DNA of 64,000 nucleotides from Escherichia phage 04086. The notes beneath the pieces are model-generated. The model saw nothing but the letters and a program-made list of their open reading frames with translations. It ran no database searches and was not told the origin of the DNA. Location: the sequence record OR842557; one strand, 5' to 3'. Positions 139 to 60,370 of this stretch are shown piece after piece. The position numbers were made by a program, and so were the translations under genes. How positions within the stretch are numbered: the first letter of the stretch is position 1; each line of letters begins with the position of its first letter.

Positions 139-189
139 GTTTACTTCTCCTCATGACATGATATTATCTACCCTATCAACATGAGGAGA
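139..189 (+). promoter_or_regulatory. Early (sigma70-type) promoter inside a stem-loop cassette (PeSL-like)
   Basis: GTTTAC at 139-144, 17 bp spacer, TATTAT at 162-167; inverted repeat TCTCCTCAT (145-153) / ATGAGGAGA (181-189) brackets the -10 and abuts the start codon at 195. Confidence 0.6.
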
Positions 190-194
190 ACAAA

Positions 195-704
195 ATGAAA
201 ATTTATCGAGTGGAGTCATCGTTCAGTATCTTAGACAACAGCGATGTTATCACAATCACTCGTCAACAATGTCGCCAATTAACCCCGTATAGAGGCTCAT
301 TTGACGAATGGAGTGAAGGTTGGTTATTGGAAGTAGGTTTCGACAGACCTAATTTTAGACACCATCATACCAATAATAAAAATATTCCACTACCAAGTCA
401 AGACGAATTGTTGGTTAGAAATTCTAATACGGTAATTAAAACCAAATTCGAACATGAAGATTATAAAGATGTAGATAACTACATTCCAGGTTGGTTTGTT
501 AACCTCTACCATTTTGCTTTTGCCAGCGAGTATGATATGATGCGCTGGTTTACTCGTGAAGAGCGTGCTGAATTATCTTCTAAAGGATTCTATCTTGCTG
601 TTTACGAAATACCAGAAGATGAGGTTGTCATTGGTGGCCGCCAAGTAATGTTCCGCAAATCCCATGCCGAACTCGTAGATTTTATTGAATTGAGAACAAT
701 ATGA
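195..704 (+). CDS. Hypothetical early protein (169 aa)
   Basis: ORF with upstream promoter cassette and GAGGAGA Shine-Dalgarno; position matches T4 motB/dexA early region but identity not established. Confidence 0.6.
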   Translation: MKIYRVESSFSILDNSDVITITRQQCRQLTPYRGSFDEWSEGWLLEVGFDRPNFRHHHTNNKNIPLPSQDELLVRNSNTVIKTKFEHEDYKDVDNYIPGWFVNLYHFAFASEYDMMRWFTREERAELSSKGFYLAVYEIPEDEVVIGGRQVMFRKSHAELVDFIELRTI

Positions 705-1249
705 AATTTAATTACAACCCTAAATACACTCCAAATCCGGCAGCTAAACTGATTGATTTTGATGTTTTAAGCACTTATGTATGCCCTGTTAAACCACTGG
801 AAATTAAGGAACCTACTATGACTACTCAGACTATCGAAATCGGCAAAACCTACAAACTGGTTGAACCTGAAATTAAAACTAAGGCCTTGATTTCCGGCCA
901 TAAAACTCTGACTGATGTTTTTGGCGAAGGCGAATTTATTGTTGAAGAATTTGCCAAAAGTGACTGGTTTGCCAAATCTTACGTCATCCACGGCCGCCGG
1001 TTAGATAATAACAAAATAGAGAAAACCCTGGTTTATGAAGCAGAGTTAATCCTGTTCCAAGAAGTTGAAGAACAAGACCCTACTGACCTTCTGTGTGCTG
1101 CTGTGTCTATCCGTCGTCCTTTTGATAATCCTATCTGTGGTTGGGTAACAGACCAGTGGGTTGAAGATGGTGTTGAGCTGCTGAACGTTGTCCATGCAGG
1201 TGATTTTAGTGTAGTACCTCGCAGTGCAGTGGTTAATGTATTGAATTAG
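701..1249 (+). CDS. Hypothetical protein (182 aa), paralog of 1323..1889
   Basis: C-terminal ...GWVTDQWVEDGVELLNVVHAGDFSVVPRSAVVNV matches ...GYITDRWVEEGVKLYNIVFLGTFKVVPESFIVEY of the next ORF; ATGA start/stop overlap with upstream ORF. Confidence 0.65.
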   Translation: MKFNYNPKYTPNPAAKLIDFDVLSTYVCPVKPLEIKEPTMTTQTIEIGKTYKLVEPEIKTKALISGHKTLTDVFGEGEFIVEEFAKSDWFAKSYVIHGRRLDNNKIEKTLVYEAELILFQEVEEQDPTDLLCAAVSIRRPFDNPICGWVTDQWVEDGVELLNVVHAGDFSVVPRSAVVNVLN

Positions 1250-4890: not shown

Positions 4891-4909
4891 GGGCCGCAAG
4901 GCCCTTTTC
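4891..4909 (+). terminator. Rho-independent terminator
   Basis: GGGCCGCAAGGCCC hairpin then TTTTCGGGG; GTTTAC promoter-like hexamer follows at 4913-4918. Confidence 0.55.
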
Positions 4910-4959
4910 GGGGTTTACAACATAACAAAACTGTGATAGGATTATCTAGAGGTGAGAAT

Positions 4960-5283
4960 ATGATTATGCAAGATAACAGTATAGTGAACACTGATAACCT
5001 GGCTTTATCTTTTATGGAAACGGCTATTCGTAACTGTAAAGATGAAGGAGTAGTGACTACAAGCGGTAAGGGACTTGAATACCTTAAGGCTGTAAAATCT
5101 ATTGCCTTAAAGATTAAAGATAACCAGGCGCTCTCTCCTGTTGTCCAGGAAAAGGTTTTAGAGATAATGTATCGCCACAGAGAGCACAAAAGTACAATGG
5201 GTTCTATGAGAAGAATTCTGGCTGAACTTGGTTCTACCAGAGAATATGTTCAACATGAGGTAGTTAAAAATGACAAACTTTAA
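4960..5283 (+). CDS. Hypothetical protein (107 aa)
   Basis: ORF with GAGGTGAG ribosome binding site. Confidence 0.55.
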   Translation: MIMQDNSIVNTDNLALSFMETAIRNCKDEGVVTTSGKGLEYLKAVKSIALKIKDNQALSPVVQEKVLEIMYRHREHKSTMGSMRRILAELGSTREYVQHEVVKNDKL

Positions 5284-7705: not shown

Positions 7706-8872
7706 ATGTACAATATTAAGTGTCTGGCTAAATCTGAACAAGAGAAAGTAGTTTCCCTCTATAAATCCGGTAATTATACTCAGCAAGAATTAGCTGACTG
7801 GTATAGTGTTTCGGTTGATACCATTCGTAAAGTCCTGAAAAATGCTGAAGAAGCTAAACGTTCTCAAGTGGCTAAAGAATTAGCCGAATCTCTTAAAAAA
7901 GCACCTACTGTACCTCTTAACGCCCCAACAGAAGTGGTTATTACTGGAAATATCAAAGTAACGGTTCCTAACGAGCCTCGTGTAGTTCCGGTTGATATTA
8001 CTATTGGTGGTTCTCGTCCAGAAATTATCTGGAATGCTAGTTCTAAATTCGTGTCCATCACCGAAGGCCGTACAGTATGGAACACCACTAATAAGAACAA
8101 ACATTTTGATGCCATCGTACAGGCTCTTAAAGAATCTCGTTTTGACGACGCGATTAAACTGATTTCCATTAAAGAAGCTGTTAAGGCCTTCGTCAAAGGT
8201 AACGTTCGTATTGAAGGCGGACGTCTGGTTTATCAAGGTATCGAATTGCGTTCCGGTTTGATTGACCGTATTATCACCTCAATGGAAAATGGCGAAGACT
8301 TCGAATTCTACCTGCCGTTCCTTGAGAACCTGTTAGAAAACCCAAGTGAAAAAGCTGTACAGCGTCTGTTCGACTTCTTGGTCGCGAACGATATCAAAAT
8401 CACTGAAGACGGCCACTTTATCACATGGAAGGTGGTTAACTCCGATTACACCGACTGCCGTACTGGTACGTTTGATAANNNTGAAAAAGCTGTACAGCGT
8501 CTGTTCGACTTCTTGGTCGCGAACGATATCAAAATCACTGAAGACGGCCACTTTATCACATGGAAGGTGGTTAACTCCGATTACACCGACTGCCGTACTG
8601 GTACGTTTGATAACTCACCAGGCAAACCGGTTAAAATGCCTCGTTCACGTGTAAACAATGACGACACAGTAACTTGTTCAAGCGGTCTACACGTTTGCTC
8701 TCGTAGCTATATCGGCGCATTTGGTAATTCAAACAACCGTGTAGTTTCATGTAAAGTTAACCCACGTGATGTTGTTAGTATTCCTGTTGATTATGGCGAT
8801 GCTAAAATGCGCGTATGTTATTATGAAGTTCTGGAAGACGTTACCGATCAGTTTAAATCAGATTTACGTTAA
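7706..8872 (+). CDS. rIIB: rIIB protein; annotated length inflated by a 135-nt in-frame duplicated segment with NNN
   Basis: Position downstream of rIIA; real length about 343 aa after removing the duplicated copy. Confidence 0.85.
   Translation: MYNIKCLAKSEQEKVVSLYKSGNYTQQELADWYSVSVDTIRKVLKNAEEAKRSQVAKELAESLKKAPTVPLNAPTEVVITGNIKVTVPNEPRVVPVDITIGGSRPEIIWNASSKFVSITEGRTVWNTTNKNKHFDAIVQALKESRFDDAIKLISIKEAVKAFVKGNVRIEGGRLVYQGIELRSGLIDRIITSMENGEDFEFYLPFLENLLENPSEKAVQRLFDFLVANDIKITEDGHFITWKVVNSDYTDCRTGTFDXXEKAVQRLFDFLVANDIKITEDGHFITWKVVNSDYTDCRTGTFDNSPGKPVKMPRSRVNNDDTVTCSSGLHVCSRSYIGAFGNSNNRVVSCKVNPRDVVSIPVDYGDAKMRVCYYEVLEDVTDQFKSDLR
8348..8612. repeat. N-marked junction (NNN at 8479-8481) between identical direct copies inside rIIB
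   Basis: 131-nt segment GAAAAAGCTGTACAGCG...GTTTGATAA present twice, separated by NNN. Confidence 0.85.
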
Positions 8873-8880
8873 AACTAAAC

Positions 8881-8896
8881 GGAGGCTTCGGCCTCC
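8881..8896 (+). other. UUCG-tetraloop RNA hairpin (weak terminator or stability element)
   Basis: GGAGGCTTCGGCCTCC directly after rIIB stop, no strong T-run. Confidence 0.45.
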
Positions 8897-9910: not shown

Positions 9911-9965
9911 GTTTACATACGCCATGGATGGTGTTACTATCTTCCTATCAACTAATGAGGAGAAC
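9911..9965 (+). promoter_or_regulatory. Early promoter cassette
   Basis: GTTTAC 9911-9916, TGTTACTAT -10 region, AATGAGGAGAACAAAATG leader. Confidence 0.5.
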
Positions 9966-9968
9966 AAA

Positions 9969-10235
9969 ATGGATATCAAATTATATTACGCTAAACACAA
10001 AGTTACAGGTACGGTTGTTGCTGCTATGTATGACGCGTCAGGTGATGGTGACGATATTACTACAGAGTTATCTCTTTCTGAATGTAAATTTCTCCGTCCT
10101 TTAATCGCATCAAAGGAAGATTTACAAAAACTTATCGACGGTAAACTGGATAATGTCGACGGCATAGTTATTCTTTATGACCTCCGCACTGCATTGTACA
10201 GGGGATTGATTGAGATAAAAGAGGTAGTGTTTTGA
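9969..10235 (+). CDS. Hypothetical protein (88 aa)
   Basis: ORF downstream of promoter cassette. Confidence 0.5.
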   Translation: MDIKLYYAKHKVTGTVVAAMYDASGDGDDITTELSLSECKFLRPLIASKEDLQKLIDGKLDNVDGIVILYDLRTALYRGLIEIKEVVF

Positions 10236-10324: not shown

Positions 10325-10375
10325 AGTATACATCTCCATTAATCATGATATTATAGACATATCAACTAATGGAGA
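10325..10375 (+). promoter_or_regulatory. Early promoter inside stem-loop cassette
   Basis: GTATAC 10325-10330, TATTAT 10349-10354; inverted repeat TCTCCATTA / TAATGGAGA. Confidence 0.5.
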
Positions 10376-10380
10376 TGATT

Positions 10381-10491
10381 ATGAAAAACTTACTTAAAGC
10401 AATTTGGAACATGTTTGTGTTATTTTTGGTATTGAGCATTTTCCCAATCGTTTTTATGATTGACCATGTACGTGTATTCTTTAACTTCTGA
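10381..10491 (+). CDS. Possible small membrane peptide (36 aa)
   Basis: MKNLLKAIWNMFVLFLVLSIFPIVFMIDHVRVFFNF; GGAG ribosome binding site. Confidence 0.35.
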   Translation: MKNLLKAIWNMFVLFLVLSIFPIVFMIDHVRVFFNF

Positions 10492-10724: not shown

Positions 10725-11069
10725 ATGTCTAAAATCTTTTTTGGTAATGCTAAGGTAATGTTCTTTAAACAACTCAGCCTTCAGGATGCATCGGTAGCAT
10801 TCAATCAAAGTATGATTCCCGGCGTAGATTCAAAAATTATGACGAGTGCCGATTTCGTTTTCGTTCAAGACCCAGAAACAGGCTTTTATCGGTTCATTAA
10901 ATTTCGTATAAGTATGGACCCGTATTATCATAGTGGTTATTATGTAAGCTATGAAAATGTTATCAAAGAACTATGTGATACTTACGGACAGGCTTTGAAC
11001 CCGCTGAACAAGATTTATAATGCAACCTTTTATACGAGCGGATTTATTTTAGAACAGCTACAAAAATAG
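10725..11069 (+). CDS. Hypothetical protein (114 aa)
   Basis: AAGGAAATTATCATG ribosome binding site. Confidence 0.5.
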   Translation: MSKIFFGNAKVMFFKQLSLQDASVAFNQSMIPGVDSKIMTSADFVFVQDPETGFYRFIKFRISMDPYYHSGYYVSYENVIKELCDTYGQALNPLNKIYNATFYTSGFILEQLQK

Positions 11070-11106
11070 TTTACAACCTCGAGAATCATGTTATAATGGT
11101 TCTCGT
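11069..11106 (+). promoter_or_regulatory. Early promoter with stem-loop
   Basis: GTTTAC 11069-11074, 17 bp, TATAAT 11092-11097; inverted repeat CGAGAATCAT / ATGGTTCTCG. Confidence 0.6.
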
Positions 11107-11146
11107 TGACTGGATAACAAAACATTAATCTACTGAGGAAATTGAT

Positions 11147-11596
11147 ATGAATACTTATATGACTCGCCGTAACGTTCTGTCTGCTGGTGCTACTACTGTT
11201 GCTTATGTTAAGAATGGTGAATACCAAAATGGTAAACCTTCTAAAGAAATCTCTGCTCAGCCAGGCTTTTACTTCTTTGTTAAAGGTGGAGCTGATTCTC
11301 GTGTCGTAGCGGCTCGTTTTTATGTCGGTAATCAACGTTCGGCTCAAGGTCTTGATGGTATCGTGGCTAATATTCGTAAGAAACGTTCTCAATCAGCTCG
11401 CACTATGGCAGTGAATGGTGTTGTGTATGAAGTTCTTTATGTGCCGGCTTCTAAGATGAAACCTCTGACTACTGGTTTTGGTAAGGGTCAAATTGCAATG
11501 GCTTTCACTCGCAATCATAGTTCCGACCTCCAGACACTGGAAGAAATGAACCGCATGTTGGCTGATAACTTTAAATTCATTCTGCAGGCGTACTAA
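11147..11596 (+). CDS. ndd: Nucleoid disruption protein Ndd (149 aa)
   Basis: Strong recalled similarity to T4 Ndd including C-terminal [13 protein letters not shown]...[17 protein letters not shown] motif. Confidence 0.9.
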
Positions 11597-11673
11597 TGAG
11601 CAATTTCCATAACGAACATGTGATGCAATTCTATCGTAACAATCTTAAAACTAAAGGCGTCTTCGGACGCTAA
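11596..11673 (+). CDS. stp: Stp peptide (25 aa), activator of host PrrC anticodon nuclease
   Basis: Translation [25 protein letters not shown] matches the T4 Stp peptide essentially residue for residue; ATG overlaps ndd stop. Confidence 0.9.
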
Positions 11674-13678: not shown

Positions 13679-13779
13679 GCCTTGGAGTCGAGTTCTTGTT
13701 ACTCTGTATCTTTGCTGTTATCCTAGGCCTGGCGACAGGCTTAGCTATAGGTTTAATAGCAGCTCACTTTAAAAAGTAA
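13675..13779 (+). CDS. Possible small membrane peptide (34 aa)
   Basis: MSLGVEFLLLCIFAVILGLATGLAIGLIAAHFKK; start overlaps gene 52 stop; followed by terminator. Confidence 0.35.
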   Translation: MSLGVEFLLLCIFAVILGLATGLAIGLIAAHFKK

Positions 13780-13802
13780 GGAACCTTCGGGTTCCTTTTT
13801 TG
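13780..13802 (+). terminator. Rho-independent terminator
   Basis: GGAACCTTCGGGTTCC hairpin then TTTTTT. Confidence 0.7.
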
Positions 13803-13820
13803 GGTTTAGTGCAAAAAAGT

Positions 13821-13860
13821 GTTTACTTCTGCTTTAAACATGATACTATAGACCTATCAA
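13821..13860 (+). promoter_or_regulatory. Early promoter cassette
   Basis: GTTTAC 13821-13826, CATGATACTATAGACCTATCAA core shared with several other cassettes. Confidence 0.55.
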
Positions 13861-13887
13861 AACAACAGAGTGAAATGGAGATACAAA

Positions 13888-14109
13888 ATGAAAACCTTAA
13901 ATATTAATTCTTTTTTCTACAACGCTAATACCGATCATGCAATGTTCTTTGATTGTGATTTAGATACTTATATCCATGTATGGGGTGTTAAGTCAGATAA
14001 AGTGGTTGTTAAGAAAAATTTAAAAACCGGTAATGGTCGTGGTCAAGCTAAAATTTCTTCTAAGAAAGTTGTTGAAGCTTATGTTGATTATGTTAAAAGC
14101 GCAATTTAA
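13888..14109 (+). CDS. Hypothetical protein (73 aa)
   Basis: GGAG ribosome binding site; position equals T4 motA.1. Confidence 0.5.
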   Translation: MKTLNINSFFYNANTDHAMFFDCDLDTYIHVWGVKSDKVVVKKNLKTGNGRGQAKISSKKVVEAYVDYVKSAI

Positions 14110-14182
14110 TTAAAAATTATATACAAAGGTCTATGATAATGTTATTATAGACCTATCAAATAAATGGTTATCGGAGATTAAA

Positions 14183-14818
14183 ATGTCTAAAATTACTTAT
14201 ATCATCAAAGCTTCTGAAGACGTCCTGAATGAAAAAACTGCTTCGATCTTAGTACATATCATCAAGCATAACTTCATCACTTCAGGCGAAGTCCGTGAAG
14301 CCCTGAGTGAGCAATTTAGTGCTGCGGTAGTTAACTCTAACATTGGTGTGTTGATTAAGAAAGGATTCATCGAAAAATCTGGTGATGGTTTAGTGGCTAC
14401 GGGTGAAGCAATGGACCTAGTTCAAAAAGCTGCCGACTTGTTCGCTTCTGAAAATGCTCCAGAGATGTTGGAAAAACGTAAAACACGTAGTTCACGTGGT
14501 GTTACTCCTGAAATGGTAACTCTGGCTGATGAAGTTAAAGCTTTATTAGAAGACCGTATCGAGATTCGTGAAATTGCTGAAAACCGTAGCAACCTTGAAG
14601 TTCGATTCGCCAAACGTACCAATGGTATTCGTCAAATTGAAGTCCGTCGTGACGGAATGATGCGTATCTTCGGTTATAATATGACTGATAAAGAAAAACA
14701 AGTGTTTACTTCCTTGAATCTTGATGTTAAGATTAAGACTGGTGGTAAGAATACTTATATCGACTTCCAAAACGTATCATCTGAAGTTATCAAAACCGTA
14801 ACCAACGCAATTATCTGA
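14183..14818 (+). CDS. motA: Middle-mode transcription activator MotA (211 aa)
   Basis: Recalled similarity to T4 MotA (same length); N-terminal MSKITYIIKASEDVLNEKTA. Confidence 0.9.
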   Translation: MSKITYIIKASEDVLNEKTASILVHIIKHNFITSGEVREALSEQFSAAVVNSNIGVLIKKGFIEKSGDGLVATGEAMDLVQKAADLFASENAPEMLEKRKTRSSRGVTPEMVTLADEVKALLEDRIEIREIAENRSNLEVRFAKRTNGIRQIEVRRDGMMRIFGYNMTDKEKQVFTSLNLDVKIKTGGKNTYIDFQNVSSEVIKTVTNAII

Positions 14819-14832
14819 CTGAGGAAATTATT

Positions 14833-15162
14833 ATGAACAAGCTGAATATTGTTAATGAACTTCGTCGTTGTGCAGAACCTACTCAAGAAGGTTGGGACAT
14901 TTGGTACCACGGTGCTTATCTCGGCACTATTGTTAAGATTAAAGCAGGTAAATACTTAATCATCCGTGGTGGTTCTGAAGCTTCTATGGGAATTCGCAAG
15001 AACTTCATGGCCGCAATCAGCACCTTTGTTCCAGCCGCTTATGAAGTCTATAAAGCAGACTACAAAGAATACCAGGAATCACAACCGGTTATTCGTTCAA
15101 TTGGTGTTAATAAAGCTCAACAGAAAAGTCTGTGGAAACGTGTTAAAGGATGGTTCAAATGA
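14833..15162 (+). CDS. Hypothetical protein (109 aa)
   Basis: ORF in motA-asiA interval (T4 arn region). Confidence 0.5.
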
Positions 15163-16161: not shown

Positions 16162-16190
16162 GTTTACAATCCCTAAGGATATGTTAGTAT
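16162..16190 (+). promoter_or_regulatory. Early promoter
   Basis: GTTTAC 16162-16167, 17 bp, TGTTAGTAT extended -10 upstream of asiA. Confidence 0.5.
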
Positions 16191-16231
16191 AGCCTTATCA
16201 GATAATGACGTACTGAATTGAAGAGAATATT

Positions 16232-41179: not shown

Positions 41180-41186
41180 AAACAAA

Positions 41187-42840: not shown

Positions 42841-42862
42841 TATAAAAATTGAGGAAATTATT

Positions 42863-44066
<1,204 letters not shown>

Positions 44067-44760: not shown

Positions 44761-44800
44761 GTTTACTTTCACCAAGGACGGTGATATGATGACCTTACCG
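44761..44800 (+). promoter_or_regulatory. Early promoter
   Basis: GTTTAC 44761-44766, TGATATGAT -10 region. Confidence 0.5.
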
Positions 44801-44820
44801 AAACAAATGAGGAAATCGAA

Positions 44821-45375: not shown

Positions 45376-45611
45376 TGCTGAGCGAACAACCTATTACTGT
45401 AGAGCAGTTCCACGTTAAAGTTAAAGAATTTGCTCAAGCCCTGATTAATAAGGTTTCTGTACGTTTTCCTGACGCAACTCTGCGAGTAATCCAGGAATCA
45501 CCGCGCGCGGTATTGGTTATCGTTAATCCTAAAAATGGCGACCAAATTACCCAGTTGAAACTCGGTTCAGATGGTTTGGTCGAAGCGCAGAGGGTGTATA
45601 TTGATGCTTAA
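45375..45611 (+). CDS. Hypothetical protein (78 aa)
   Basis: ATG overlaps upstream stop. Confidence 0.5.
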   Translation: MLSEQPITVEQFHVKVKEFAQALINKVSVRFPDATLRVIQESPRAVLVIVNPKNGDQITQLKLGSDGLVEAQRVYIDA

Positions 45612-45942
45612 TTTAAAACTAGCAGTTAATGCCACCTTACAATCTGACGAAGACGGAGACCATCGAGGTCTCTCTGAAAAGGCTACTCAGTACATCAAAG
45701 ACCTTTTTAAACTGAGTGAAGATTTCCAAAGCATCCATACTTCAACATATGATGCTGTGCTGGCTACTGTTCTTCCGGTTGAAATTGGTGATCGAATTCC
45801 GGCAGCGGTATTTTTCGATAAACAAAAACGCTTCCCAGACGGTTATGGTATATTAACCTCACGTGTGAAATCTATCACTAAACTTCGTACCGATTTATAT
45901 CGTGTCGAAACCAATAATACAGCTTATCTAGTGGTGATGTAA
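45604..45942 (+). CDS. Hypothetical protein (112 aa)
   Basis: ORF ending in ATGA overlap with cd start. Confidence 0.5.
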   Translation: MLNLKLAVNATLQSDEDGDHRGLSEKATQYIKDLFKLSEDFQSIHTSTYDAVLATVLPVEIGDRIPAAVFFDKQKRFPDGYGILTSRVKSITKLRTDLYRVETNNTAYLVVM

Positions 45943-46714
45943 TGAAAGCAAGCACATACCTTCAGATTGCATATCTGATTTCTCAAGAATCAAAATGTTG
46001 TTCATGGAAAGTGGGTGCGGTTATCGAAAAGAATGGTCGCATTATCTCTACAGGCTATAATGGTTCACCATCCGGTGGTGTTAACTGTTGTGACCACGCT
46101 GTGGAACAAGACTGGACCCGTGTTGTGTATGACCCAGCGCGGATGTCGCATAAATCTGTTCTTCTTAAAGAACACCGCATGGCTCACGCTGCATGGTCAT
46201 CTAAAAATGAAATCCATGCCGAACTGAATGCTATTTTGTTTGCAGCTCGTACCGGAAGTTCTATTGATGGCGCTACGATGTANATAACGGTTCGCCTTCT
46301 GGTGGTGTTAACTGTTGTGACCATGCTGTGGAACAAGACTGGACCCGTGTTGTGTATGACCCAGCGCGGATGTCGCATAAATCTGTTCTTCTTAAAGAAC
46401 ACCGCATGGCTCACGCTGCATGGTCATCTAAAAATGAAATCCATGCCGAACTGAATGCTATTTTGTTTGCAGCTCGTACCGGAAGTTCTATTGATGGCGC
46501 TACGATGTACGTGACGTTATCTCCGTGCGCTGATTGTGCTAAGTCTATTGCGCAGTCCGGAATTAAAACATTGGTTTATGCTGAGCTCTATGACCGAAAT
46601 CCTGAAGGTTGGGACGATATCCTCCGTGAATCAGGCATCGAAGTTATCCAGTATAATCGTACAGGTCTCCGTTCTTTGAACTGGGAATCAATTCAAAACT
46701 ATTGCGGTGAATAA
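45942..46714 (+). CDS. cd: dCMP deaminase; split by N-junction duplication
   Basis: Recalled similarity to T4 Cd (SKCCSWKVGAVIEKNGRIISTGYNGSP, HAELNAILFAAR, YVTLSPC.DCAK zinc-binding motif). Confidence 0.9.
46057..46509. repeat. N-marked junction (N at 46283) between ~226 bp near-identical copies inside cd
   Basis: Copy 2 begins with several third-position differences, then identical. Confidence 0.8.
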
Positions 46715-47019
46715 TGAATATTTTATTTGAAAAACCTAAACAAGTGGTTACTGTTGATTACACAGATACATTTATTGATGCTCTTCTCCAAAAAGGTATC
46801 AAATCTATTAAAGTAGGTCCACTTTATGTTATTGAACAGCTTAAAGGCAATTCTACTGGCGAAATTTCGACTCATTCTACTAGTGATATCGAATATGTTA
46901 TTGACCAATTGGTAAATGTAAACCCAGAATTGGTATTAGTCCGTGAAGTTCGTAAAGAAACTCGTGGCGGCGAAACCAAGTATATTGTCCGCATTGATTA
47001 TATAAAAATCGAAGGCTAA
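46714..47019 (+). CDS. Hypothetical protein (101 aa)
   Basis: ATGA overlap with cd stop. Confidence 0.55.
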   Translation: MNILFEKPKQVVTVDYTDTFIDALLQKGIKSIKVGPLYVIEQLKGNSTGEISTHSTSDIEYVIDQLVNVNPELVLVREVRKETRGGETKYIVRIDYIKIEG

Positions 47020-47042
47020 GCATCCTAATTGAAGGAAACAAA

Positions 47043-48779: not shown

Positions 48780-48784
48780 GTTAT

Positions 48785-48808
48785 GGGACTCTTCGGAGTC
48801 CCATTTTT
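48785..48808 (+). terminator. Rho-independent terminator
   Basis: GGGACTCTTCGGAGTCCC then ATTTTTG. Confidence 0.7.
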
Positions 48809-48830
48809 GTTTCTAAATCTTTAAAAAAGG

Positions 48831-48875
48831 GTGTACATCTCCGGTAGGCATGATACTATAGACATGTACCAAATA
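48831..48875 (+). promoter_or_regulatory. Early promoter variant with stem-loop
   Basis: GTGTAC 48831-48836, 17 bp, TACTAT 48854-48859; inverted repeat GGTA / TACC arms flank the -10. Confidence 0.5.
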
Positions 48876-48900
48876 ATACTAAAACAAACTGGAGAATAAA

Positions 48901-49233
48901 ATGAAAACTGTAAATCTGAATGCATCTGTTAAAGCTAAATGTTTCAACGGTGAATATCAAGAAACCATGTGGGTCCTGACTGCAGTTGAAGGTGATATCA
49001 TCGAAGTTGAAACAACTGAAGGTATGGGTACTGATTTTACATTCACCATCGAGCTTCACAACTTCTTTACAGGTTGGATTTATGAACTGAAAACTGTAAT
49101 TACTGGTCGTATTGAAGAAAACAAAAATGGTGAATTCTATTATGTTAATGCCCGTACACGTGCTGAACGTCTGATTGCTCAGATGAAAAAAGTTGGTAAA
49201 CTTGATATGAAAAATTGGAATGTTGTGAAATAA
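48901..49233 (+). CDS. Hypothetical protein (110 aa)
   Basis: ACTGGAGAATAAAATG leader shared with next gene. Confidence 0.55.
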   Translation: MKTVNLNASVKAKCFNGEYQETMWVLTAVEGDIIEVETTEGMGTDFTFTIELHNFFTGWIYELKTVITGRIEENKNGEFYYVNARTRAERLIAQMKKVGKLDMKNWNVVK

Positions 49234-49236: not shown

Positions 49237-49285
49237 TTTTACTTTGGTACAGGTTGTGTTATTATAGACCTGTACCAAATAATAC
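49237..49285 (+). promoter_or_regulatory. Early promoter with stem-loop
   Basis: TTTTAC 49237-49242, 17 bp, TATTAT 49260-49265; inverted repeat GGTACAGGT / ACCTGTACC spans the -10. Confidence 0.55.
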
Positions 49286-49306
49286 GAAAACAAACTGGAG
49301 AATAAA

Positions 49307-49672
49307 ATGAACTACATCAACTTCGAACGTAAATATGTTTCTAACGGTATCGCTGGTTCTTCTGAAGTTATTTGCCTGTGGAAACACAACAACGGCGCGG
49401 TGTGCGAAATCGAACAGTGCATGACTCCTAACTACGTTTATATGCGCTTTGAAAATGGTATTACGGTTTCAATCACATTGGAAGGTTCTACTTTTAAAAT
49501 CGCTTTAGATGATGATTTCCGTCAACGTGATTTAGGTACCCATCCTTGCTGGAACGGTGTTAATCGTAAGCTTCTGGTTAAAACTTGGATTCGTCACATC
49601 CTGAGCAACCGAGCTAAACCTGAACACCTGGAAGCAATCTTTGATGTAGTTCTGAACGAATTCGACATCTAA
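49307..49672 (+). CDS. Hypothetical protein (121 aa)
   Basis: Same leader sequence as the 48901 gene. Confidence 0.55.
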   Translation: MNYINFERKYVSNGIAGSSEVICLWKHNNGAVCEIEQCMTPNYVYMRFENGITVSITLEGSTFKIALDDDFRQRDLGTHPCWNGVNRKLLVKTWIRHILSNRAKPEHLEAIFDVVLNEFDI

Positions 49673-49682: not shown

Positions 49683-49698
49683 GGAGGCTTCGGCCTCC
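49683..49698 (+). other. UUCG-tetraloop hairpin (weak terminator)
   Basis: GGAGGCTTCGGCCTCC, same sequence as the hairpin at 8881. Confidence 0.45.
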
Positions 49699-50196: not shown

Positions 50197-50409
50197 ATGG
50201 TTAAGAAATTGATTCAGAAATTATTAGGTACGGAAATGGTCGAAGTGACTTATCGTGTAACTGATTTATCTCCTGTGCATCCGCAAGATGAACCATATAC
50301 TAAAACAATTAAAATGCTGAAATCTGATGGCGGATTATCTATTGAAGACCGTCTACCTGGTTATGGTCATTGGGCTGATGTCGAAATTATAAGTGTCAAA
50401 GATATTTAA
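50197..50409 (+). CDS. Hypothetical protein (70 aa), tandem paralog of 50419..50631
   Basis: MVKKLIQKLLGTEMVEVTYRVTDLSP aligns with MIKKLFKKLFGLELVEVTYRVIDLSP; same length. Confidence 0.6.
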   Translation: MVKKLIQKLLGTEMVEVTYRVTDLSPVHPQDEPYTKTIKMLKSDGGLSIEDRLPGYGHWADVEIISVKDI

Positions 50410-50418
50410 GGAATCTTC

Positions 50419-50631
50419 ATGATTAAGAAATTATTTAAAAAGCTGTTTGGCTTGGAACTGGTTGAAGTGACTTATCGTGTTATTGATTTATCACCGCCAT
50501 ATGCTTGCGATGAAGATGCTATTAAAACTGTTGTTATGCGAAAAACATATCGCGGGCAGTCAATTAAAGAAAGATTGCCAGACCATGGCATGTGGTATGC
50601 AACCAAGATTATCGGTGTCAAAGATGTCTGA
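50419..50631 (+). CDS. Hypothetical protein (70 aa), tandem paralog of 50197..50409
   Basis: See previous. Confidence 0.6.
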   Translation: MIKKLFKKLFGLELVEVTYRVIDLSPPYACDEDAIKTVVMRKTYRGQSIKERLPDHGMWYATKIIGVKDV

Positions 50632-53765: not shown

Positions 53766-55661
53766 ATGTCCGAACAATTGAATGAGGTATTTGACGGCGC
53801 TATAGATTTATCAGCTGTCAATTTAAACCCTAAACTTAAAGTACCACAGATTTGGAATATAAAGGCTGAAGGTAATGAGAACCTTGTTGCACGCATGGTT
53901 TCATATACTTCTGAAGGTGATACAATCCGCCAAGTTAAACCGGGTGACAAATACGTTCATATTATTTTAATGAGCCTATCATCTAAAGGGGCCCCGGCAG
54001 AACTCAAAGGTGGTTTAGGTAGTAACCCCATTTCCGCTATTCGTTCTATATTTGATACGGTTTATGAACAAGTTAAAAAGCTCCGTATGGATGCCGTTAT
54101 GTTCCGTTTTCCTACTAAGAAAATGAAAGGTCAGGAAAAAGCTGTACAACGAGTTCTAGCCAAATTAATAGCTACTAGAGCAGGTGGGCAATTCAAGGTC
54201 CTTGATGCCTTGTATCAATATACAGGCAAACATTCATATGTTTTTATCTATCGTAAAAATAAAAATATAGAATCAATAAACGGTATTCCTAATATTAATC
54301 CGGAATTGTATACTAAAGTCGAATCTGAAGTCGGTGATGTGTATGTTTCAAAGAAAACAGGCGAAGATGTTACCAAATTAGAAGCTATAGCTAAGTCTAT
54401 AGACGAAATAGAAAAATCACGTTCTGATAAAATGGTTATAACCAAGACTAAGGTTTCTAAACGGGCCGCTATAAATGCGTTATATTCTACCGCCGAGCCT
54501 ACAGGATTGAGTAAATTTTCGGCAGAGCACAAAAAAGCTTATGCAGATTATTCTGCTACTAGTTCCGTTCATTCTTCTGAAGATTCTAAAGAAAGCCAAA
54601 TAGCTTTAGCCAGTAATAAAATATTAAAAGACGCCTCTAAAGAAATGGCAGAATATTTGGATTATATTTTTAACGGTGTTAATCCATCATTTGAAGTAGA
54701 CGAGCGCAAACTTAAACTAATTGCTGATATAAAGTTTGCTTTAGAGGCATCAGATTCTTTAGATAAATCTAATAGTGTCATAGAGGCTTTAAAATCAGGT
54801 AAATCTCATGTAGACATTCTTAGACTAGTCGCTGCGGCCCTTTTAGATGATTCAGTTAAAGGTACTTGGGCTAGAGAATCTAAAATCAAGGAAGTAATAA
54901 AATCCTTAGTAGCAGTTTATACAAAATCTATCCAACCGTTGTTTAAGATATCTGATAATCCTAATTTATCCAAACCTCAAGAAGAGGCAGTCAAAAAGTA
55001 TACTCGTGGCGGCTACAACCATATAAACAACTTTTTGCTAGGTAAAACAGATACCACCGATGAAATGATAAAAATGATTGGTGAGTTGGATTCTACATTT
55101 GAAAATGGTACAAAACTTCCTAAAGGAACCATAGTGTATCGTTCTCAGATAATGCCTACCGAAATGGCTTTGAATTCTATAAAACATAAGGTGATGTATC
55201 TTCCTATTTTTGCATCAACTTCATTGGCTCCTAATATTTTCGGTGAAATGGGTCATGCTCAATCCAACTTAGACCCTGAAGCTCTTTCTAGCGATATAGA
55301 TAGTAATCTTGAAGACACCATTAAAAGTGCGACCGGAAGTGCTAGAGATACCATTAAGCTAGGGCTAATTATTAAAGGTGCTGATAAAATTAAGGTTATT
55401 GTGCCCGGTGACTTGGCTAATTGGTCTACAGAAACCGAAGTAATTCTTCCTCGTGGGGTTATGCTTAAGATTAATAAAGTATACGGTGCTTCCAAGGGAC
55501 CTATGGGTTCAATTGGTAAATATGTTTTAGTGGAATGTGAAGTTGTAGCTACAGAGCAAATCACAGAGGAAAATTCATATAGCACCGGATTCTCGTTTGG
55601 AAATTATGATAGAATTATGTATGAAGATTCTATGGAAAAATTAGCAAATTTATTTAAATAG
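53766..55661 (+). CDS. alt: Alt-family ADP-ribosyltransferase, paralog 1 (631 aa)
   Basis: N-terminal module shared with the next two genes; C-terminal ADP-ribosyltransferase motifs YRSQ (Arg), FASTSL (STS) and ETEVILPRG (E-x-E); location between 30 and 54 as for T4 alt. Confidence 0.8.
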   Translation: MSEQLNEVFDGAIDLSAVNLNPKLKVPQIWNIKAEGNENLVARMVSYTSEGDTIRQVKPGDKYVHIILMSLSSKGAPAELKGGLGSNPISAIRSIFDTVYEQVKKLRMDAVMFRFPTKKMKGQEKAVQRVLAKLIATRAGGQFKVLDALYQYTGKHSYVFIYRKNKNIESINGIPNINPELYTKVESEVGDVYVSKKTGEDVTKLEAIAKSIDEIEKSRSDKMVITKTKVSKRAAINALYSTAEPTGLSKFSAEHKKAYADYSATSSVHSSEDSKESQIALASNKILKDASKEMAEYLDYIFNGVNPSFEVDERKLKLIADIKFALEASDSLDKSNSVIEALKSGKSHVDILRLVAAALLDDSVKGTWARESKIKEVIKSLVAVYTKSIQPLFKISDNPNLSKPQEEAVKKYTRGGYNHINNFLLGKTDTTDEMIKMIGELDSTFENGTKLPKGTIVYRSQIMPTEMALNSIKHKVMYLPIFASTSLAPNIFGEMGHAQSNLDPEALSSDIDSNLEDTIKSATGSARDTIKLGLIIKGADKIKVIVPGDLANWSTETEVILPRGVMLKINKVYGASKGPMGSIGKYVLVECEVVATEQITEENSYSTGFSFGNYDRIMYEDSMEKLANLFK

Positions 55662-55669: not shown

Positions 55670-57751
55670 ATGACCCAATTAAATGAAGTGTTCGAGTCCG
55701 AAGGTACACTGCCTGTTGTGAACTTGAACCCAAAACTTAAAGTACCTCAGATTTGGAAGATTGGAGACGCGGAGTCTCAGTTAGTAGCACGTATGGTATC
55801 CTACGCTTCTGAAGGTGATGCTATTAAACAAGTTAAAATGGGTGATAAATATGCCCACGTTATCCTTATGAGCCTTTCAGCTAAAGGTTCGCCTGCCGAA
55901 CTTAAAGGCGGCTTAGGCCCTACTCCTGTAGATGCGATTAATACTATTTTTGATGTAGTTTATGACCAAGTTAAAAAGCTTCGTATGGATGCCGTGATGT
56001 TCCGTTTTCCTACCAAGAAAATGAAAGGTCAAGGCCCTATCGTTCAACGTATTATCCAACGTTTGGTAGCACAGAAAACCGGTGGACGTTTTAAAGTGGT
56101 TCCGGCTATGTACCAATTTACCGGTAAACATACTTACATCCTGGTAGTCCGTAAACAAGCTGATATCGAAGATATCAAAGGTATGCCTGGAATTAATGCT
56201 GAATTGTATACTAAGGTAGATTCTGATGTCGGTGAAGTTTATATTTCCAAAAAAGAAGGTGTGCAGGTTACTAAAGAAACTGCTATTGCTGGCAGTATTG
56301 CTAAGGTTGAAGAACGTCGCACTGATAAAATGGTTATAACCAAGACTAAGATTTCTAGGCGCGCCATTGCAGCAAGCCAATCATTGGAATCTTATCGTAA
56401 TGAAAGTGAATTGTTTAAGAAATATGAAGCTACTGCAGCGGATTTTAATAAACCGGCAACAGTTCCATTAATCCCTGAGGCTCAGGAAATGGTTACTAAT
56501 AACAATTCTCCTGCGGCTAAAAATAAGGTTGCTAATATAGTGGCTGAAGGCACTGCTGAAGAATTGCATTACGATTATAAAATGTTTCCTCTTCACGGTA
56601 TAGGTGAAATCCAAGAGAAAATTAAAGAGAAAATTCTTACAGCAATAAAAAACGAACCTTTGACATCTGTTAAAGCTCTAGAAAAATATGCCTCTGCTAT
56701 TAATACCGTTTTCGAAGAATACAAAGGTGAATGGCTGGCTATCCATAACAGAACTCGTAAAGGCCAACCTGATGACCTTTGGAACGAATTGACAGAGGCC
56801 AAGTGGAAAGCAGCCAAGACTAAGTTCATTAAAAAACGTGTATATAGTTTTGCTGGTGTGGGTGGCGGTATTATGGTTGATATTACTATTGCTCGTGAGG
56901 GCTCTAAATATACCCCATCACAAAAGCGCGGAATCAGAGAATATTGTGGTTCAGGATATACAGACATAAATAATCTTCTTTTAGGACGTTATAATCCTCA
57001 GAACTATGAGGTTATGAGCGAAAAAGATATCGAATCTGCAGTTAATAATTTGGATTCTGCTTTTGAAAACGGCGACCGTATACCAGAAGGCATCACAGTT
57101 TATCGCGCACAGAGTATGACTGCTCCTATATACGAAGCACTAGTTAAAAATAAAGTGTTCTATTTCAGAAATTTTGTATCTACTTCTTTAACTCCTATCA
57201 TTTTCGGACGTTTTGGTGTTACCCACGCAGGTATTGGTCTTTTAGAACCTGAAGTTCGCAATGAATTGACAGTCGATAAAAATGAAGAAGGAATAACTAT
57301 TAACCCTAATGAAATAAGAGCGTATAAAGAAAACCCTGATTACGTTAAAGTTCAAATAGGATGGGCAATTGATGGAGCCCATAAAGTTAATGTCGTATAT
57401 CCAGGAAATCTCGGAATAGCAACTGAAGCCGAAGTTATTCTGCCGCGTGGATTAATGGTCAAAGTTAATAAAATAACAGATGCTTCTAATAATGATGGAA
57501 CAACATCTAGTAATACAAAACTCATCCAAGCTGAAGTTATGACAACAGATGAGCTTCAAGAATCTGTGGTATATGATGGTGACGTACTAATGGAAACCGG
57601 CGAGCTGGTCGTGTATCAAGATGATTTCGATACTTCCGAAAGCCCTGTATCTTTTGATTCATTTGTTAAATCTACACGGTTTGATGTACTGCCTCTTTTG
57701 GCTTCATGCATAGACCTCTATGACATCCCAGAAAAATTCATCCAAGGGTAA
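55670..57751 (+). CDS. alt: Alt-family ADP-ribosyltransferase, paralog 2 (693 aa)
   Basis: Same N-terminal module; motifs YRAQ, FVSTSL, EAEVILPRG; size closest to T4 Alt. Confidence 0.85.
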   Translation: MTQLNEVFESEGTLPVVNLNPKLKVPQIWKIGDAESQLVARMVSYASEGDAIKQVKMGDKYAHVILMSLSAKGSPAELKGGLGPTPVDAINTIFDVVYDQVKKLRMDAVMFRFPTKKMKGQGPIVQRIIQRLVAQKTGGRFKVVPAMYQFTGKHTYILVVRKQADIEDIKGMPGINAELYTKVDSDVGEVYISKKEGVQVTKETAIAGSIAKVEERRTDKMVITKTKISRRAIAASQSLESYRNESELFKKYEATAADFNKPATVPLIPEAQEMVTNNNSPAAKNKVANIVAEGTAEELHYDYKMFPLHGIGEIQEKIKEKILTAIKNEPLTSVKALEKYASAINTVFEEYKGEWLAIHNRTRKGQPDDLWNELTEAKWKAAKTKFIKKRVYSFAGVGGGIMVDITIAREGSKYTPSQKRGIREYCGSGYTDINNLLLGRYNPQNYEVMSEKDIESAVNNLDSAFENGDRIPEGITVYRAQSMTAPIYEALVKNKVFYFRNFVSTSLTPIIFGRFGVTHAGIGLLEPEVRNELTVDKNEEGITINPNEIRAYKENPDYVKVQIGWAIDGAHKVNVVYPGNLGIATEAEVILPRGLMVKVNKITDASNNDGTTSSNTKLIQAEVMTTDELQESVVYDGDVLMETGELVVYQDDFDTSESPVSFDSFVKSTRFDVLPLLASCIDLYDIPEKFIQG

Positions 57752-57754
57752 ATA

Positions 57755-60317
57755 ATGGAAAATTTAAACGAGGTTTTTGATAGTGATTCCGCTAAAAACT
57801 ATCCAGTAACAAATCTTAAACCGGGTTCCGGTATTCCACAGATTTTCTCTATCCAAGCACCAGGTAACGATAACCTGGTTGCTCGCATGGTATCTTATGC
57901 GTCTGAAGGCGACGCTATTAAGATGGTTAAGGCGGGCGATAAGTACGTCCATGTTATCTTAATGAGTTTATCTGCTAAAGGCGCTCCGGCAGAACTCAAG
58001 GGCGGTTTGGGTACCGATCCACTCGGTACACTGAACACCATTTTCGATACCATATATGAACAAATAAACAAACTTAAAATGGACGCGGTTTTATTCCGTT
58101 TCCCTACTAAGAAAATGAAAGGTAAGGGCCCTACCGTTCAGCGCGTATTAGCTCGTTTGGCTATGGCCCGTACCGGTGGTAAGTTTAAAGTTGTTGACGA
58201 CATGTTCCAATTCAGCGGAAAACATACCTACGTTCTTTTAGTACGTCGTGGTGCTAATATTGAAGATATCAAGGGTATGCCTGAAATTAATGCCGATCTT
58301 TATACTAAAGTTGAGTCTAAAGTTGNAGGTCCTACCGTTCAGCGCGTATTAGCTCGCTTGGCTATGGCTCGTACCGGTGGTAAGTTTAAAGTTGTTGACG
58401 ACATGTTCCAATTCAGCGGAAAACATACCTACGTTCTTTTAGTACGTCGTGGTGCTAATATTGAAGATATCAAGGGTATGCCTGAAATTAATGCCGATCT
58501 TTATACTAAAGTTGAGTCTAAAGTTGGCGAAGTGTATGTTTCTAAGAAAACCGGCCAGGCNTAAGGGCCCTACCGTTCAGCGCGTATTAGCTCGTTTGGC
58601 TATGGCCCGTACCGGTGGTAAGTTTAAAGTTGTTGACGACATGTTCCAATTCAGCGGAAAACATACCTACGTTCTTTTAGTACGTCGTGGTGCTAATATT
58701 GAAGATATCAAGGGTATGCCTGAAATTAATGCCGATCTTTATACTAAAGTTGAGTCTAAAGTTGGCGAAGTGTATGTTTCTAAGAAAACCGGCCAGGCCG
58801 TAAGTAAGGTCGAAGCAGTAGCGGCATCTATTGCACAAGTTGAAGAGAAACGTACCGATAAGGCTGTCATTACCCGTACTAAGATTTCCCGTCGTATGGC
58901 AGCAGCCGCGCAGTATTCTACTGCTGAGCCTGAAACTTTGTCCCCTAAAGAATTGCAGGTTTATAACGAGTTTGAAGCTTCTGTACCGGTTCACACGGCT
59001 GAAGGCCCTGAGAATGAAGGTATTGAACAGATTAGTCAGAACTTTAAAAAAGGTGCTATTACTAAAATGCGCCAGGCTTCTCAGTTTAAATCTAAGAGCG
59101 AGGACCTTGCCAACTTTAGATACACTATTGCCCTCACGCACGCTTTAATGACTGATAGTAAATTTAAACTAAATTATGCTAATAGAGATAAACAAGGGTT
59201 TGAAATTTACTCTAATAATATGGCATTTTTTAATACAGAAGTCGATAGACTTTTAAGTGGTCTTTCGCAAATCAATACAACCAATAGTCTGGATATTATT
59301 AAGAAAATTGTTAATAACTTGAGTGCTCGTTTTAAGGGTTCCCCTTCAGAAAAGGCCTCTCGAATTGCTTTCGCTATGGAAGCCGTTTATAAACTGGTTA
59401 ACGATTCTATTAGTGATGCATATGCTTATTCAGGCGAGCTCATTAAACCTAAGGACCTAACCAAAGACGAAAGCAATGCTATTATTGAATATTGCGCAGC
59501 TGAATATGCTCCTATGAACTTATTCCTTTTAGGTAAACCTGAATCCGAAAACAATACAACGGCTATTAAATTGATTAAGGATTTAGACTCAGCATTTACT
59601 AAGGGTATTAAACTTCCTAAGGGTACTATTTTGTATCGTGGTCAGGATTTGCCATACAAAATTCTGCGCCATAATATCGATAACAAAACATTTTACTTTA
59701 AGAACTTTGTGTCAGCCTCATTAAAGCCTAACATCTTTGGTGAATTTGGTAAAAATTATATGGCCCTCGACAACCAAGCCGTTTTTGTTGGCGGCGAAGG
59801 TTCTTTATCCTCCGCTGATGAGTTGTTTAAATTGGCTAGCGGTAGTTCATCTGATGTGGGTGAAGTCGATGACGAAGAGGTAGAATGGGAAGAAGACGAG
59901 TTCGGTAATCCAATTGCGCCCGAAGGTCCTGCGGATAGAATTGCTGAAATTGGTATGGTTATTCGAGGTGCTGAAGCAGTTAAAGTTATCGCTCCTGGTG
60001 ACCTTACAGAATATGCCGAAGAAGCAGAAATTATCCTTCCGCGTGGGTTATTGTTGAAGGTTGATAAAGTAGCGGCTTTTGCTATGAATGATAGAGTATC
60101 TCACAAATACCTTATGGAAGCTACCGTAACACCTCCTTCAGAGCTCAGTGAATCTGTTTACGATGGTGACCATTTGATGGAAACTGGTGAAGTTCGCCTG
60201 ATGGACGGCTTTAAACAGTTCTTGGTTAGTGAATCCATTTCTGAAAGTAACGAGGCTATGGAAATCCTTGCTGCATCTTTGGATATCTCTTCTTTATCAA
60301 ATAAATTCAAAATGTAG
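57755..60317 (+). CDS. alt: Alt-family ADP-ribosyltransferase, paralog 3; annotated length inflated by two N-junction duplications
   Basis: Same N-terminal module; motifs YRGQ, FVSASL (STS variant), EAEIILPRG; real length about 705 aa. Confidence 0.8.
58123..58800. repeat. Three overlapping copies of ~200-235 bp inside alt paralog 3 separated by N at 58326 and 58561
   Basis: Copy 2 extends further 3' than copy 1 and carries 3 synonymous differences; copy 3 matches copy 1. Confidence 0.8.
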
Positions 60318-60370
60318 TTTACATTACCACAAGGATGTGGTACTATTACCTTACACAAACATGAGGAGAA
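60317..60370 (+). promoter_or_regulatory. Early promoter cassette
   Basis: GTTTAC 60317-60322, TACTAT 60341-60346, CATGAGGAGAACATTATG leader. Confidence 0.55.

Follow-up and report, generated by a model that had tools for sequence, protein, structure and literature searches.

The 64,000 nucleotides (nt) of Escherichia phage 04086 analysed here (sequence record OR842557; hereafter the window) carry 23 early promoters, and in about two thirds of them, though not all, an inverted repeat is built into the promoter itself. Judged by sequence, and as far as the accessible parts of the papers on them define the kind, these elements are cassettes of the promoter early stem-loop (PeSL) type, further members of a published and mostly known family, in what sequence comparison indicates is a Dhakavirus-like T4-type coliphage. 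The explanation we favour, and consider probable, is that they are composite cassettes whose stems act on RNA reading in from upstream. The promoter spacer would pair either with the segment from the -10 element to the start site, in a helix ending at about +1 (class B), or with the downstream Shine-Dalgarno (SD) sequence (class A), and the hairpin would be confined to sense RNA entering by read-through from the gene before it. Class B would then mark where the upstream unit ends, either attenuating transcription or protecting the 3' end, and so do the job that a T-tailed terminator with a UUCG loop does before stem-less promoters; class A would hide the downstream ribosome-binding site (RBS) and its RegB-type GGAG site. 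As a result, expression of the gene would depend essentially on the immediate-early promoter in front of it. The shared core of ~50 base pairs (bp) also acts as portable homology: comparison with sister phages shows crossovers inside the cassette that delete, replace or add open reading frames (ORFs).

The strict motif GTTTAC-N17-TANNAT has 10 matches in the window (nine on the + strand, one on the -) and GTTTAC-N18-TANNAT has six, all on +, with 0.33 expected from shuffles for each spacing; combined, 15 lie on + and one on -, where ~0.7 would be expected. A two-block weight matrix finds 22 sites of at least 15 bits on + and none on -, with 0.35 in Markov-random sequence; it was trained on 20 of the same sites, so the strict-consensus counts are the independent test. 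Three sites were added by the matrix, at 14119 (motA), 14704 and 29565 (gene 32), for a total of 23. All of these fall in the early blocks of the + strand (1-16.5 kb and 26.7-60.4 kb), clustering at 0.1-16 kb, 30.6-32.1 kb and 41-49 kb, with none in the late or core replication blocks. Each cassette consists of an A-rich upstream stretch, the -35 element GTTTAC, a 17-18 bp spacer, a TGn-extended -10 element TAnnAT and a conserved start region ATAGACCTATCAAC, and the promoter fits into the 55-75 bp gap between two early genes. There is a stop codon upstream, and an SD and ATG follow 21-130 nt downstream at each of the 23 sites; the median distance from -10 to ATG is 30 nt, with a strong SD between. 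These are strand-specific sigma70-type early promoters with an AT-rich region upstream, and they match the "UP/-35/TGn/-10" description of T4 early promoters (PMC2988021). One core, CATGATACTATAGACNTATCAAC, occurs in four copies at up to one mismatch (0 expected), and another, ATGAGGAAATAAAATG, has six matches at up to two mismatches (0.12 expected), among them two assembly-artefact copies before gene 39 (2672 and 2860) and one on the - strand. An earlier note made from the same sequence had proposed recurrent GTTTAC/17-18 bp/TATAAT-like early promoters with a near-identical shared core, and both proposals hold, at counts far above what an AT-rich genome would give. That note placed them in front of small ORFs, which is true of some (from 36 amino acids, aa); the downstream genes range up to 315 aa, and about half of the sites have a conserved regulator downstream (motB, cef, ndd, motA, asiA, rnh or alc, with motB.2 also recognised by synteny).

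The repeat within these promoters is stronger than composition would give. Folding from -35 to ATG yields a mean z of -2.4 at the window sites against dinucleotide shuffles. More discriminating is a test in which just the first 13-14 spacer nt, a segment largely free of promoter constraint, are permuted; it gives z <= -2.9 at 14 of the 23 sites. An internal stem is found at 14-15 of the 23 (z <= -2.3), and four have a terminator hairpin just upstream, so the inverted repeat that had been claimed for these promoters stands at about two thirds of them and is missing from the others. For a broader sample, IMG/VR was scanned for the core TGATAYTATAGACNTATCAA, which gave 76 loci on T4-like contigs (about a dozen of 120-172 kb) and shorter metagenome contigs; promoters gathered by matrix from these loci and the window came to 187 unique sites, reduced to 94 non-redundant representatives. 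A helix of at least 6 bp with its 5' arm in the spacer is present in 60 of the 94 (64%), and 39% have a spacer-permutation z below -3. In class B (31 representatives) the 3' arm ends +10 to +16 from the first base of the -10 element, approximately at the predicted start site, and in class A (~10 strong representatives) it ends 5-10 nt before the ATG, over the SD. Arm sequences vary between sites while complementarity is kept, as in the differing pairs TCTCCTCAT/ATGAGGAGA, TCTCCATTA/TAATGGAGA, TCTCCTGTAG/CTACAGGAGA, CTCCTTTAG/CTAAAGGAG, AGGTCTATAG/CTATAGACCT and GGGCTCATGAT/ATTATGAGCCC. The first of these pairs recurs at 146/181 and 41135/41171, confirming the shared arms that had been noticed at sites 139 and 41128. 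An alignment of 13 class-A sequences has 96% of cells paired, double changes in 4 of 10 pairs and a covariation score of 0.388 (shuffled 0.11, with 0 of 500 reaching it; slid registers <= 0.07), a count that describes rather than proves the helix, the sequences having been pre-selected for predicted helices. On these statistics, the stem is selected.

The sites in the window, all on the + strand, are as follows (z is the spacer-permutation value; arms are given as 5' / 3'; sense and antisense free energies are in kcal/mol).

139-197: class A; -35 at 139-144, -10 at 162-167; arms 145-155 / 180-190, the 3' arm over the SD GAGGAG, which matches the RegB consensus GGAGAACAAAA; dG -18.8, z -5.1; ATG 195, motB.2-like, 169 aa.
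1252-1325: class B; -10 at 1275-1280; arms 1264-1272 / 1279-1287, the 3' arm ending at the predicted start site; z -3.5; sense -16.2, antisense -12.5; ATG 1323, motB.
1904-1966: class B; -35 GTATAC; arms 1914-1925 / 1932-1943; z -4.3; sense -16.9, antisense -8.7; ATG 1964, cef.
4891-4962: terminator GGGCCGCAAGGCCC plus TTTT at 4891-4908, then a promoter (-35 at 4913, -10 at 4937-4942) that lacks an internal stem; ATG 4960, rIIA.1-like.
9911-9971: promoter with a weak stem inside the spacer only (z -1.5); SD GGAGAACAAAA; ATG 9969.
10326-10383: class A; arms 10331-10341 / 10367-10377 (TCTCCATTA / TAATGGAGA); z -4.6; ATG 10381, 36 aa.
11069-11149: class B; arms 11081-11089 / 11096-11104 with one U·G pair; z -4.7; ATG 11147, ndd.
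13778-13890: UUCG terminator 13778-13797 plus T run, then a promoter (-35 at 13821) that lacks an internal stem; ATG 13888, a 73-aa ORF for which Bp7 has a replacement and which UGJNEcP3 and IME540 lack.
14119-14185: class B; -35 ATATAC; arms 14127-14138 / 14143-14154; z -7.0; ATG 14183, motA.
14704-14835: promoter-like, inside the 3' end of motA; stem not significant (z -1.4); ATG 14833, 93 nt downstream.
16162-16234: asiA promoter; a 5-bp TAAGG/CCTTA repeat around -10, not significant (z -0.1); ATG 16232.
26743-26805: rnh promoter; a weak stem around -10 (GGGTCAT 26757-26763 / ATGAACC 26770-26776) and a stronger hairpin, GAACCTCT 26772-26779 / AGAGGTTC 26793-26800, which lies over the SD, abuts ATG 26803 and has a 5' arm starting directly after -10, hence largely upstream of the start site.
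29565-29685: weaker promoter upstream of gene 32 (-35 ATTTGC, 11.6 bits); class-B stem 29579-29587 / 29591-29599; z -3.3; ATG 29683.
30611-30706: UUCG terminator 30611-30630 plus T run, then a promoter (-35 at 30647) that lacks an internal stem; ATG 30704, Frd.2-like.
31355-31418: promoter with conserved core; stem not significant (z 0.1); ATG 31416.
31643-31705: class B; arms 31657-31665 / 31670-31678; z -3.0; ATG 31703, 119-aa ORF.
32070-32142: class B; arms 32077-32091 / 32098-32115 with three G·U pairs; SD GGAGAATAAAA; sense -16.4, antisense -9.3; ATG 32140, Frd.1, DUF5417.
41128-41189: class A; arms 41135-41154 / 41159-41179 (TCTCCTCAT…ATGAGGAGA plus an inner helix); dG -19.3, z -4.7; -35 overlapped by the rnlA stop codon; ATG 41187, alc.
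42799-42865: class B; arms 42809-42819 / 42828-42839; z -3.2; ATG 42863.
44761-44823: promoter with a modest stem signal (z -2.3); ATG 44821, 184 aa.
48783-48903: UUCG terminator 48783-48804, then class A with -35 GTGTAC at 48831; outer arms 48838-48845 / 48888-48895 over the SD GGAGAATAAAA; ATG 48901, 30.8-like.
49237-49309: class B; -35 TTTTAC; arms 49243-49258 / 49263-49279 (GGTACAGGT / ACCTGTACC); z -4.8; ATG 49307.
60317-60377: promoter with a stem between -35 and -10 (60325-60331 / 60336-60342); z -2.9; ATG 60375, DUF5498, alt.-3-like.

The imperfections of the stems point to the strand on which they pair. Although the stems were located with symmetric scoring that penalises G·T and A·C equally, they contain 24 G·T and 5 A·C, where base composition predicts a ratio of 0.72 (binomial p = 1e-7) and chance stems in shuffled sequence have 149:282. 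This excess is what pairing on sense-strand RNA would leave, and class-B stems are usually several kcal/mol stabler on the sense strand, as at 1904. The pairing thus looks selected in a single strand, the sense strand, most simply as RNA. In the strong cases the 5' arm lies between -35 and -10, or, in the rnh type, between -10 and +1. A transcript begun at the promoter itself starts downstream of this arm and so cannot include the stem. We infer that the hairpin forms only in read-through RNA; any modulation of translation would therefore be possible only on RNA arriving from upstream.

Class A can be compared with a known architecture. The spacer pairs with the SD at sites 139, 10326, 41128 and 48831, and at these four and in the rnh hairpin (26772-26800) the SD or start codon is paired to a 5' strand lying upstream of the transcription start. 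In the T4 genes e, soc, 49 and I-TevI the promoter likewise sits inside a hairpin that sequesters the RBS (PMC3014915), and by analogy class A is this architecture built around an early promoter. The two share an SD paired with a 5' arm upstream of the promoter's start, and in both long upstream transcripts are predicted to be translationally silent and promoter-proximal ones open. They differ in that the internal T4 promoters are late or middle and the hairpin delays expression, whereas the window promoters are early and the effect would be to limit expression to the gene's own immediate-early transcript. The nuclease RegB cuts GGAG in early SDs, with the strong-site consensus GG*AGRAYARAA, and RNA structure shields sites from it (PMC3014915). 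The window has five exact matches to GGAGRAYARAA, and all are cassette SDs (185, 9959, 32130, 48891 and 49297), which makes them predicted RegB targets. Read-through RNA of class A would accordingly be both silent and RegB-resistant, and promoter-proximal RNA both translated and RegB-sensitive.

Stems and terminators tend to alternate. Genuine terminators in the window have GC stems, mostly UUCG loops, and T runs, and four of them lie 8-27 nt upstream of a cassette -35 (4891, 13778, 30611 and 48783). In the wider set, a terminator stands within ~50 nt upstream of 26 of 52 stem-less promoters versus 3 of 40 with a stem (Fisher p = 1e-5); collapsed to 68 clusters of downstream genes, the counts are 17 of 38 versus 4 of 30 (p = 0.008). 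Four orthologous groups switch between the two devices, the motA promoter for example having a stem here and a terminator elsewhere. The alternation fits either of two readings, that the stem replaces a terminator or that it is needed only where read-through RNA arrives, and on both of them the stem would act on incoming transcripts.

Comparison with relatives shows what happens at the cassettes over evolutionary time. With the artefact duplications removed, we used MAFFT to align 1-16.6 kb of the window with AnYang, Bp7, UGJNEcP3, IME540 and dhaeg, and 29-51.2 kb with IME281, Bp7, dhaeg, UGJNEcP3 and WG01; BLAST chaining was dropped in favour of MAFFT because artefact duplications and cross-hits between cassettes confounded it. 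At 9920, two copies of the spacer/-10/start block enclose a 287-nt ORF in UGJNEcP3, and at 10325 dhaeg carries a further promoter and ORF (308 nt) whose insertion point is precisely the -35. Between cassettes 13821 and 14119 (13862-14161), Bp7 has an unrelated ORF in place of the window's, and UGJNEcP3 and IME540 are each left with a single chimeric cassette, their crossover points differing. An extra paralogous ORF in IME281 and dhaeg is joined at the SD/ATG at 30700, a promoter-plus-ORF unit between cassettes 31643 and 32070 (31702-32069) is unique to the window and missing from five relatives, and three relatives have an ORF inserted between cassette leader and gene at 42861. Events without a cassette occur at ~746, 2174, 2824, 11595 and 15153 in the first part and at 32388-32964, 33543, 34915-35208, 38395 (an intron in Bp7), 39324-39968, 45598-45935, 46713-47042 and 50382-50604 in the second. 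Several are flanked by microhomology at start/stop junctions. At 15141-15166, an arn.3-like ORF of 322-335 nt, present in AnYang and Bp7 and absent from the window, UGJNEcP3 and IME540, is flanked by the 13-nt direct repeat TTCAAATGA(A/T)TCC (at 15153) at translationally coupled stop/start junctions, a case of ORF turnover with no promoter cassette. In all, a cassette lies at the junction of ~6 of ~19 ORF-scale indel loci. Of the earlier picture of mobile cassettes that shuffle ORFs, the six junctions and the chimeric cassettes bear out the mechanism, and the ~13 indels lacking a cassette speak against its generality: recombination within cassettes clearly happens, and by these alignments it is not the dominant route of ORF turnover here. 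Two paralogue families also lie beside cassettes, a Frd.2-like pair (30704-31090 and 31703-32062, starting MEIGKTYEL and METGKTYAL) and a pair of 70 aa (50197-50409 and 50419-50631, starting M(V/I)KKL); the copy number of both varies among sister phages.

Several observations weigh against the favoured explanation, beside the pre-selection of the class-A alignment mentioned above. About a third of promoters have neither stem nor terminator. The start sites of the window promoters are inferred from the position of the -10 element. The difference between sense and antisense free energy, with p = 0.02 in the window alone, is weak across all 94 regions (p = 0.079), and the exclusivity of stem and terminator is not reproduced in T4 (2 of 12 versus 2 of 7), where 19 usable promoters in 100 kb make a small sample. 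Cassettes are not significantly enriched at indel junctions (6 of 19, compared with ~21 of ~88 gene junctions; p = 0.29). None of the 40 strong stems has at least five T in the next 8 nt (mean 1.95), and the boundary role of class B is a putative mechanism. The lack of a T tract also means that the internal stems are not canonical intrinsic terminators, which makes it unlikely that they are ordinary Rho-independent terminators inside the promoter, the "promoter-terminator" reading of PeSLs. That reading can point to the RB49 stem-loop PeSL211/210, which cut lacZ expression as strongly as rrnB T1 in the accessible part of Arbiol 2010 (PMC2839356), and functional equivalence would predict the mutual exclusivity with canonical terminators. 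Yet the bona fide terminators of the window look different, with their GC stems, UUCG loops and T runs, and the class-A loops of ~25 nt are atypical of terminators.

The other alternatives place the repeat elsewhere. It might act in DNA, as a cruciform or hairpin at promoter opening, a protein operator or the target of a junction-resolving nuclease: the repeats bracket the -10, crossovers map inside cassettes, and the structures blocked sequencing reactions on single-stranded DNA, according to the accessible part of Arbiol 2010 (PMC2839356). We regard this as very unlikely, since the arms are not conserved between sites as a common operator would need, since G·T on the sense strand is tolerated and its A·C counterpart is not, where a cruciform would be weakened on both strands, and since exclusivity with RNA terminators would not be expected. 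The earlier note suggested that the stem could fold in the 5' leader RNA, here the leader made from the promoter itself, and so modulate how the downstream ORF is translated. In favour of this, the 3' arm of class A is the SD and the rnh hairpin over the SD and ATG begins right after the -10, but it fails on geometry: the 5' arm is upstream of the start site in every strong case, untranscribed from its own promoter, and the leaders are only ~20-25 nt long, so that we hold it highly improbable. A reading as chance resemblance in AT-rich DNA, or as a neutral consequence of promoter copying, could draw on the near identity of several cores; we give it next to no weight given strand-specific motif counts 20-60 times expectation, the spacer-permutation z values, arms that differ and remain complementary, and the G·T bias. 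We thus keep to PeSL-type cassettes whose stems would act on incoming read-through RNA.

In the portions of Arbiol 2010 (PMC2839356) and Comeau 2014 (PMC4122927) available to us, a PeSL is described as an early promoter of sigma70 type that a stem-loop overlaps or adjoins, preceded by a stop codon in A-rich sequence and followed by an SD and ATG, and the proposed match of the window elements to this description is sound. PeSLs are also said to prefer hyperplastic regions, next to ORFans; the window sites do form clusters, with conserved regulators behind about half of them. The stem-loop position defines five subclasses, and PeSL-like sequences in phage JS98 are already mentioned (both in the part of Arbiol 2010 consulted, PMC2839356). 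Going by the same portions of these papers, PeSLs and the window cassettes have in common many copies per genome, G·T pairs in the stems, stems between -35 and -10 or overlapping the -10, and ORF indels between sister phages with crossovers inside the element. They differ in the -35, which is GTTTAC in the window (the T4/PST type) and TTGACA in RB49 PeSLs, and in the stems, those of the window not being polyG/polyC; in addition, cassettes explain about a third of the ORF indels in the window, unlike the PeSL picture. The SD-pairing class, the exclusion of the stem from the promoter's own RNA and the alternation with terminators are not described in the accessible portions of PMC2839356 and PMC4122927.

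T4 early promoters (Pe) share the consensus elements and the downstream genes motB.2, motB and cef, and the T4 promoters at ~8218 (motB.2), ~7215 (motB) and ~6630 (cef) have the same class A and B stems. Run on T4, the matrix finds promoters on the early strand only and none on the other, and the start-region block is far more uniform in the window's phage group than in T4. The T4 motB promoter and site 42799, which lies at a different locus, have almost the same core, with a compensatory change in the stem (GGGACC/GGTCCC in T4, GGGAGC/GCTCC at 42799), and the window's own motB promoter (1252) has T4-like flanks around a different stem and core. This suggests that promoter cores have been exchanged between loci. 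A search of the literature accessible to us for genome-wide maps of T4 start sites or 3' ends found none, and the T4 GenBank records examined hold no promoter features.

Some sequences near or inside the promoters invite other readings. TGCTTTA in the spacers of 13821 and 31355 was considered as a MotA box and rejected, as it ends 7 nt before the -10, unlike the middle promoter before gene 39 (TGCTTTA-N12-TAATAT, 12 nt to the -10). A mini-ORF reading of ATGAGGAAATAA / ATGAGGAGAACAAAATGA was likewise rejected, as frame and stop vary between sites. ATGs inside the promoter (-10 or spacer) are the longest-ORF starts at 26770 (rnh), 42827 and 9924, and the AnYang record uses the same in-promoter starts for rnh (326 aa) and the 9924 ORF (103 aa); the likelier starts are those with an SD before them, at 26803, 42863 and 9969. 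The element GGAGGCTTCGGCCTCC, which the earlier note counted among the recurring arms, does recur at 8881-8896 and 49683-49698, with no adjoining promoter: together with GCGTCTTCGGACGC at 11657-11670, these are UUCG-tetraloop hairpins between a stop codon and the next SD, with no T run, a separate repeated intercistronic element (repeat family D20) that possibly protects mRNA ends. Upstream of gene 39, at 2617-2690, a UUCG terminator is followed by a MotA-type middle promoter, an arrangement that resembles the "promoter-middle stem-loops" (PmSLs) reportedly found in phage nt-1; its second copy at 2805-2878 is the product of an artefact duplication.

The first 12 kb of the window are 95.4% identical to Escherichia phage AnYang and 91-93% to the other Dhakavirus phages (Bp7, IME540, dhaeg and UGJNEcP3), and comparison of 29.6-50.6 kb gives the same relationship; the type phage of the genus is JS98. 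Judged by synteny with relatives whose genomes are annotated, the + strand early genes run motB.2, motB, cef, 39, rIIA, rIIB, denB, ndd, 52, motA, asiA. A - strand block of tail-fibre and holin genes follows (16.5-26.7 kb), and from 26.7 kb the + strand carries rnh, 32, frd, td, nrdAB, rnlA, alc, pseT, cd, 31, rIII, the 30.x genes and three alt-like genes, with the late block on the - strand from 60.7 kb onward. The alt-like genes (53766-55661, 55670-57751 and 58449-60317) are tandem paralogues of ~570-690 aa, each with an ADP-ribosyltransferase exoenzyme domain (PF03496; E 8e-14, 4e-36 and 6e-18) and none with an early-promoter cassette before it; T4 has a single alt plus remnants. Rfam and tRNA scans of the whole window gave no matches. 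Each N in the window (2727, 8479-8481, 12361, 13224, 34180, 34404, 36777, 41683, 42463, 46283, 58326 and 58561) marks the junction of a near-perfect tandem duplication of 130-230 nt, for example 2541-2726/2729-2914 and, with three copies, 33954-34630. With one copy taken out, the alignment to AnYang runs gap-free through all four junctions of the first 15 kb, in a single 12.3-kb block of 95.7% identity, and because of this the duplications look like assembly artefacts, unmerged contig or read overlaps by their appearance. They split or lengthen several ORFs: the N-terminal copy of gp39, gp52, rIIB and alc.

The cassettes set the expression of immediate-early takeover genes (motA, asiA, motB, ndd and alc) and of many ORFans. 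They are candidate sites of gene-cassette exchange among T4-like phages, which matters for annotating and engineering therapeutic coliphages, and cassette-mediated exchange is only one of several routes of ORF turnover in the genus. What this analysis may add to the published picture, as far as its accessible parts go, is a matter of sequence statistics: a stem that is not in the promoter's own leader, its alternation with terminators, and a class that pairs with the RBS. Taken further, the stems could form a general insulation system, in which the arriving transcript is ended or stabilised (class B) or has its RBS and RegB site masked (class A), an idea we offer tentatively, as possible rather than probable. 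If it is true, a small early gene would owe its translation, and its later inactivation by RegB, solely to transcripts from its own promoter, and the internal stem would be an evolutionarily interchangeable, space-saving stand-in for a conventional terminator.

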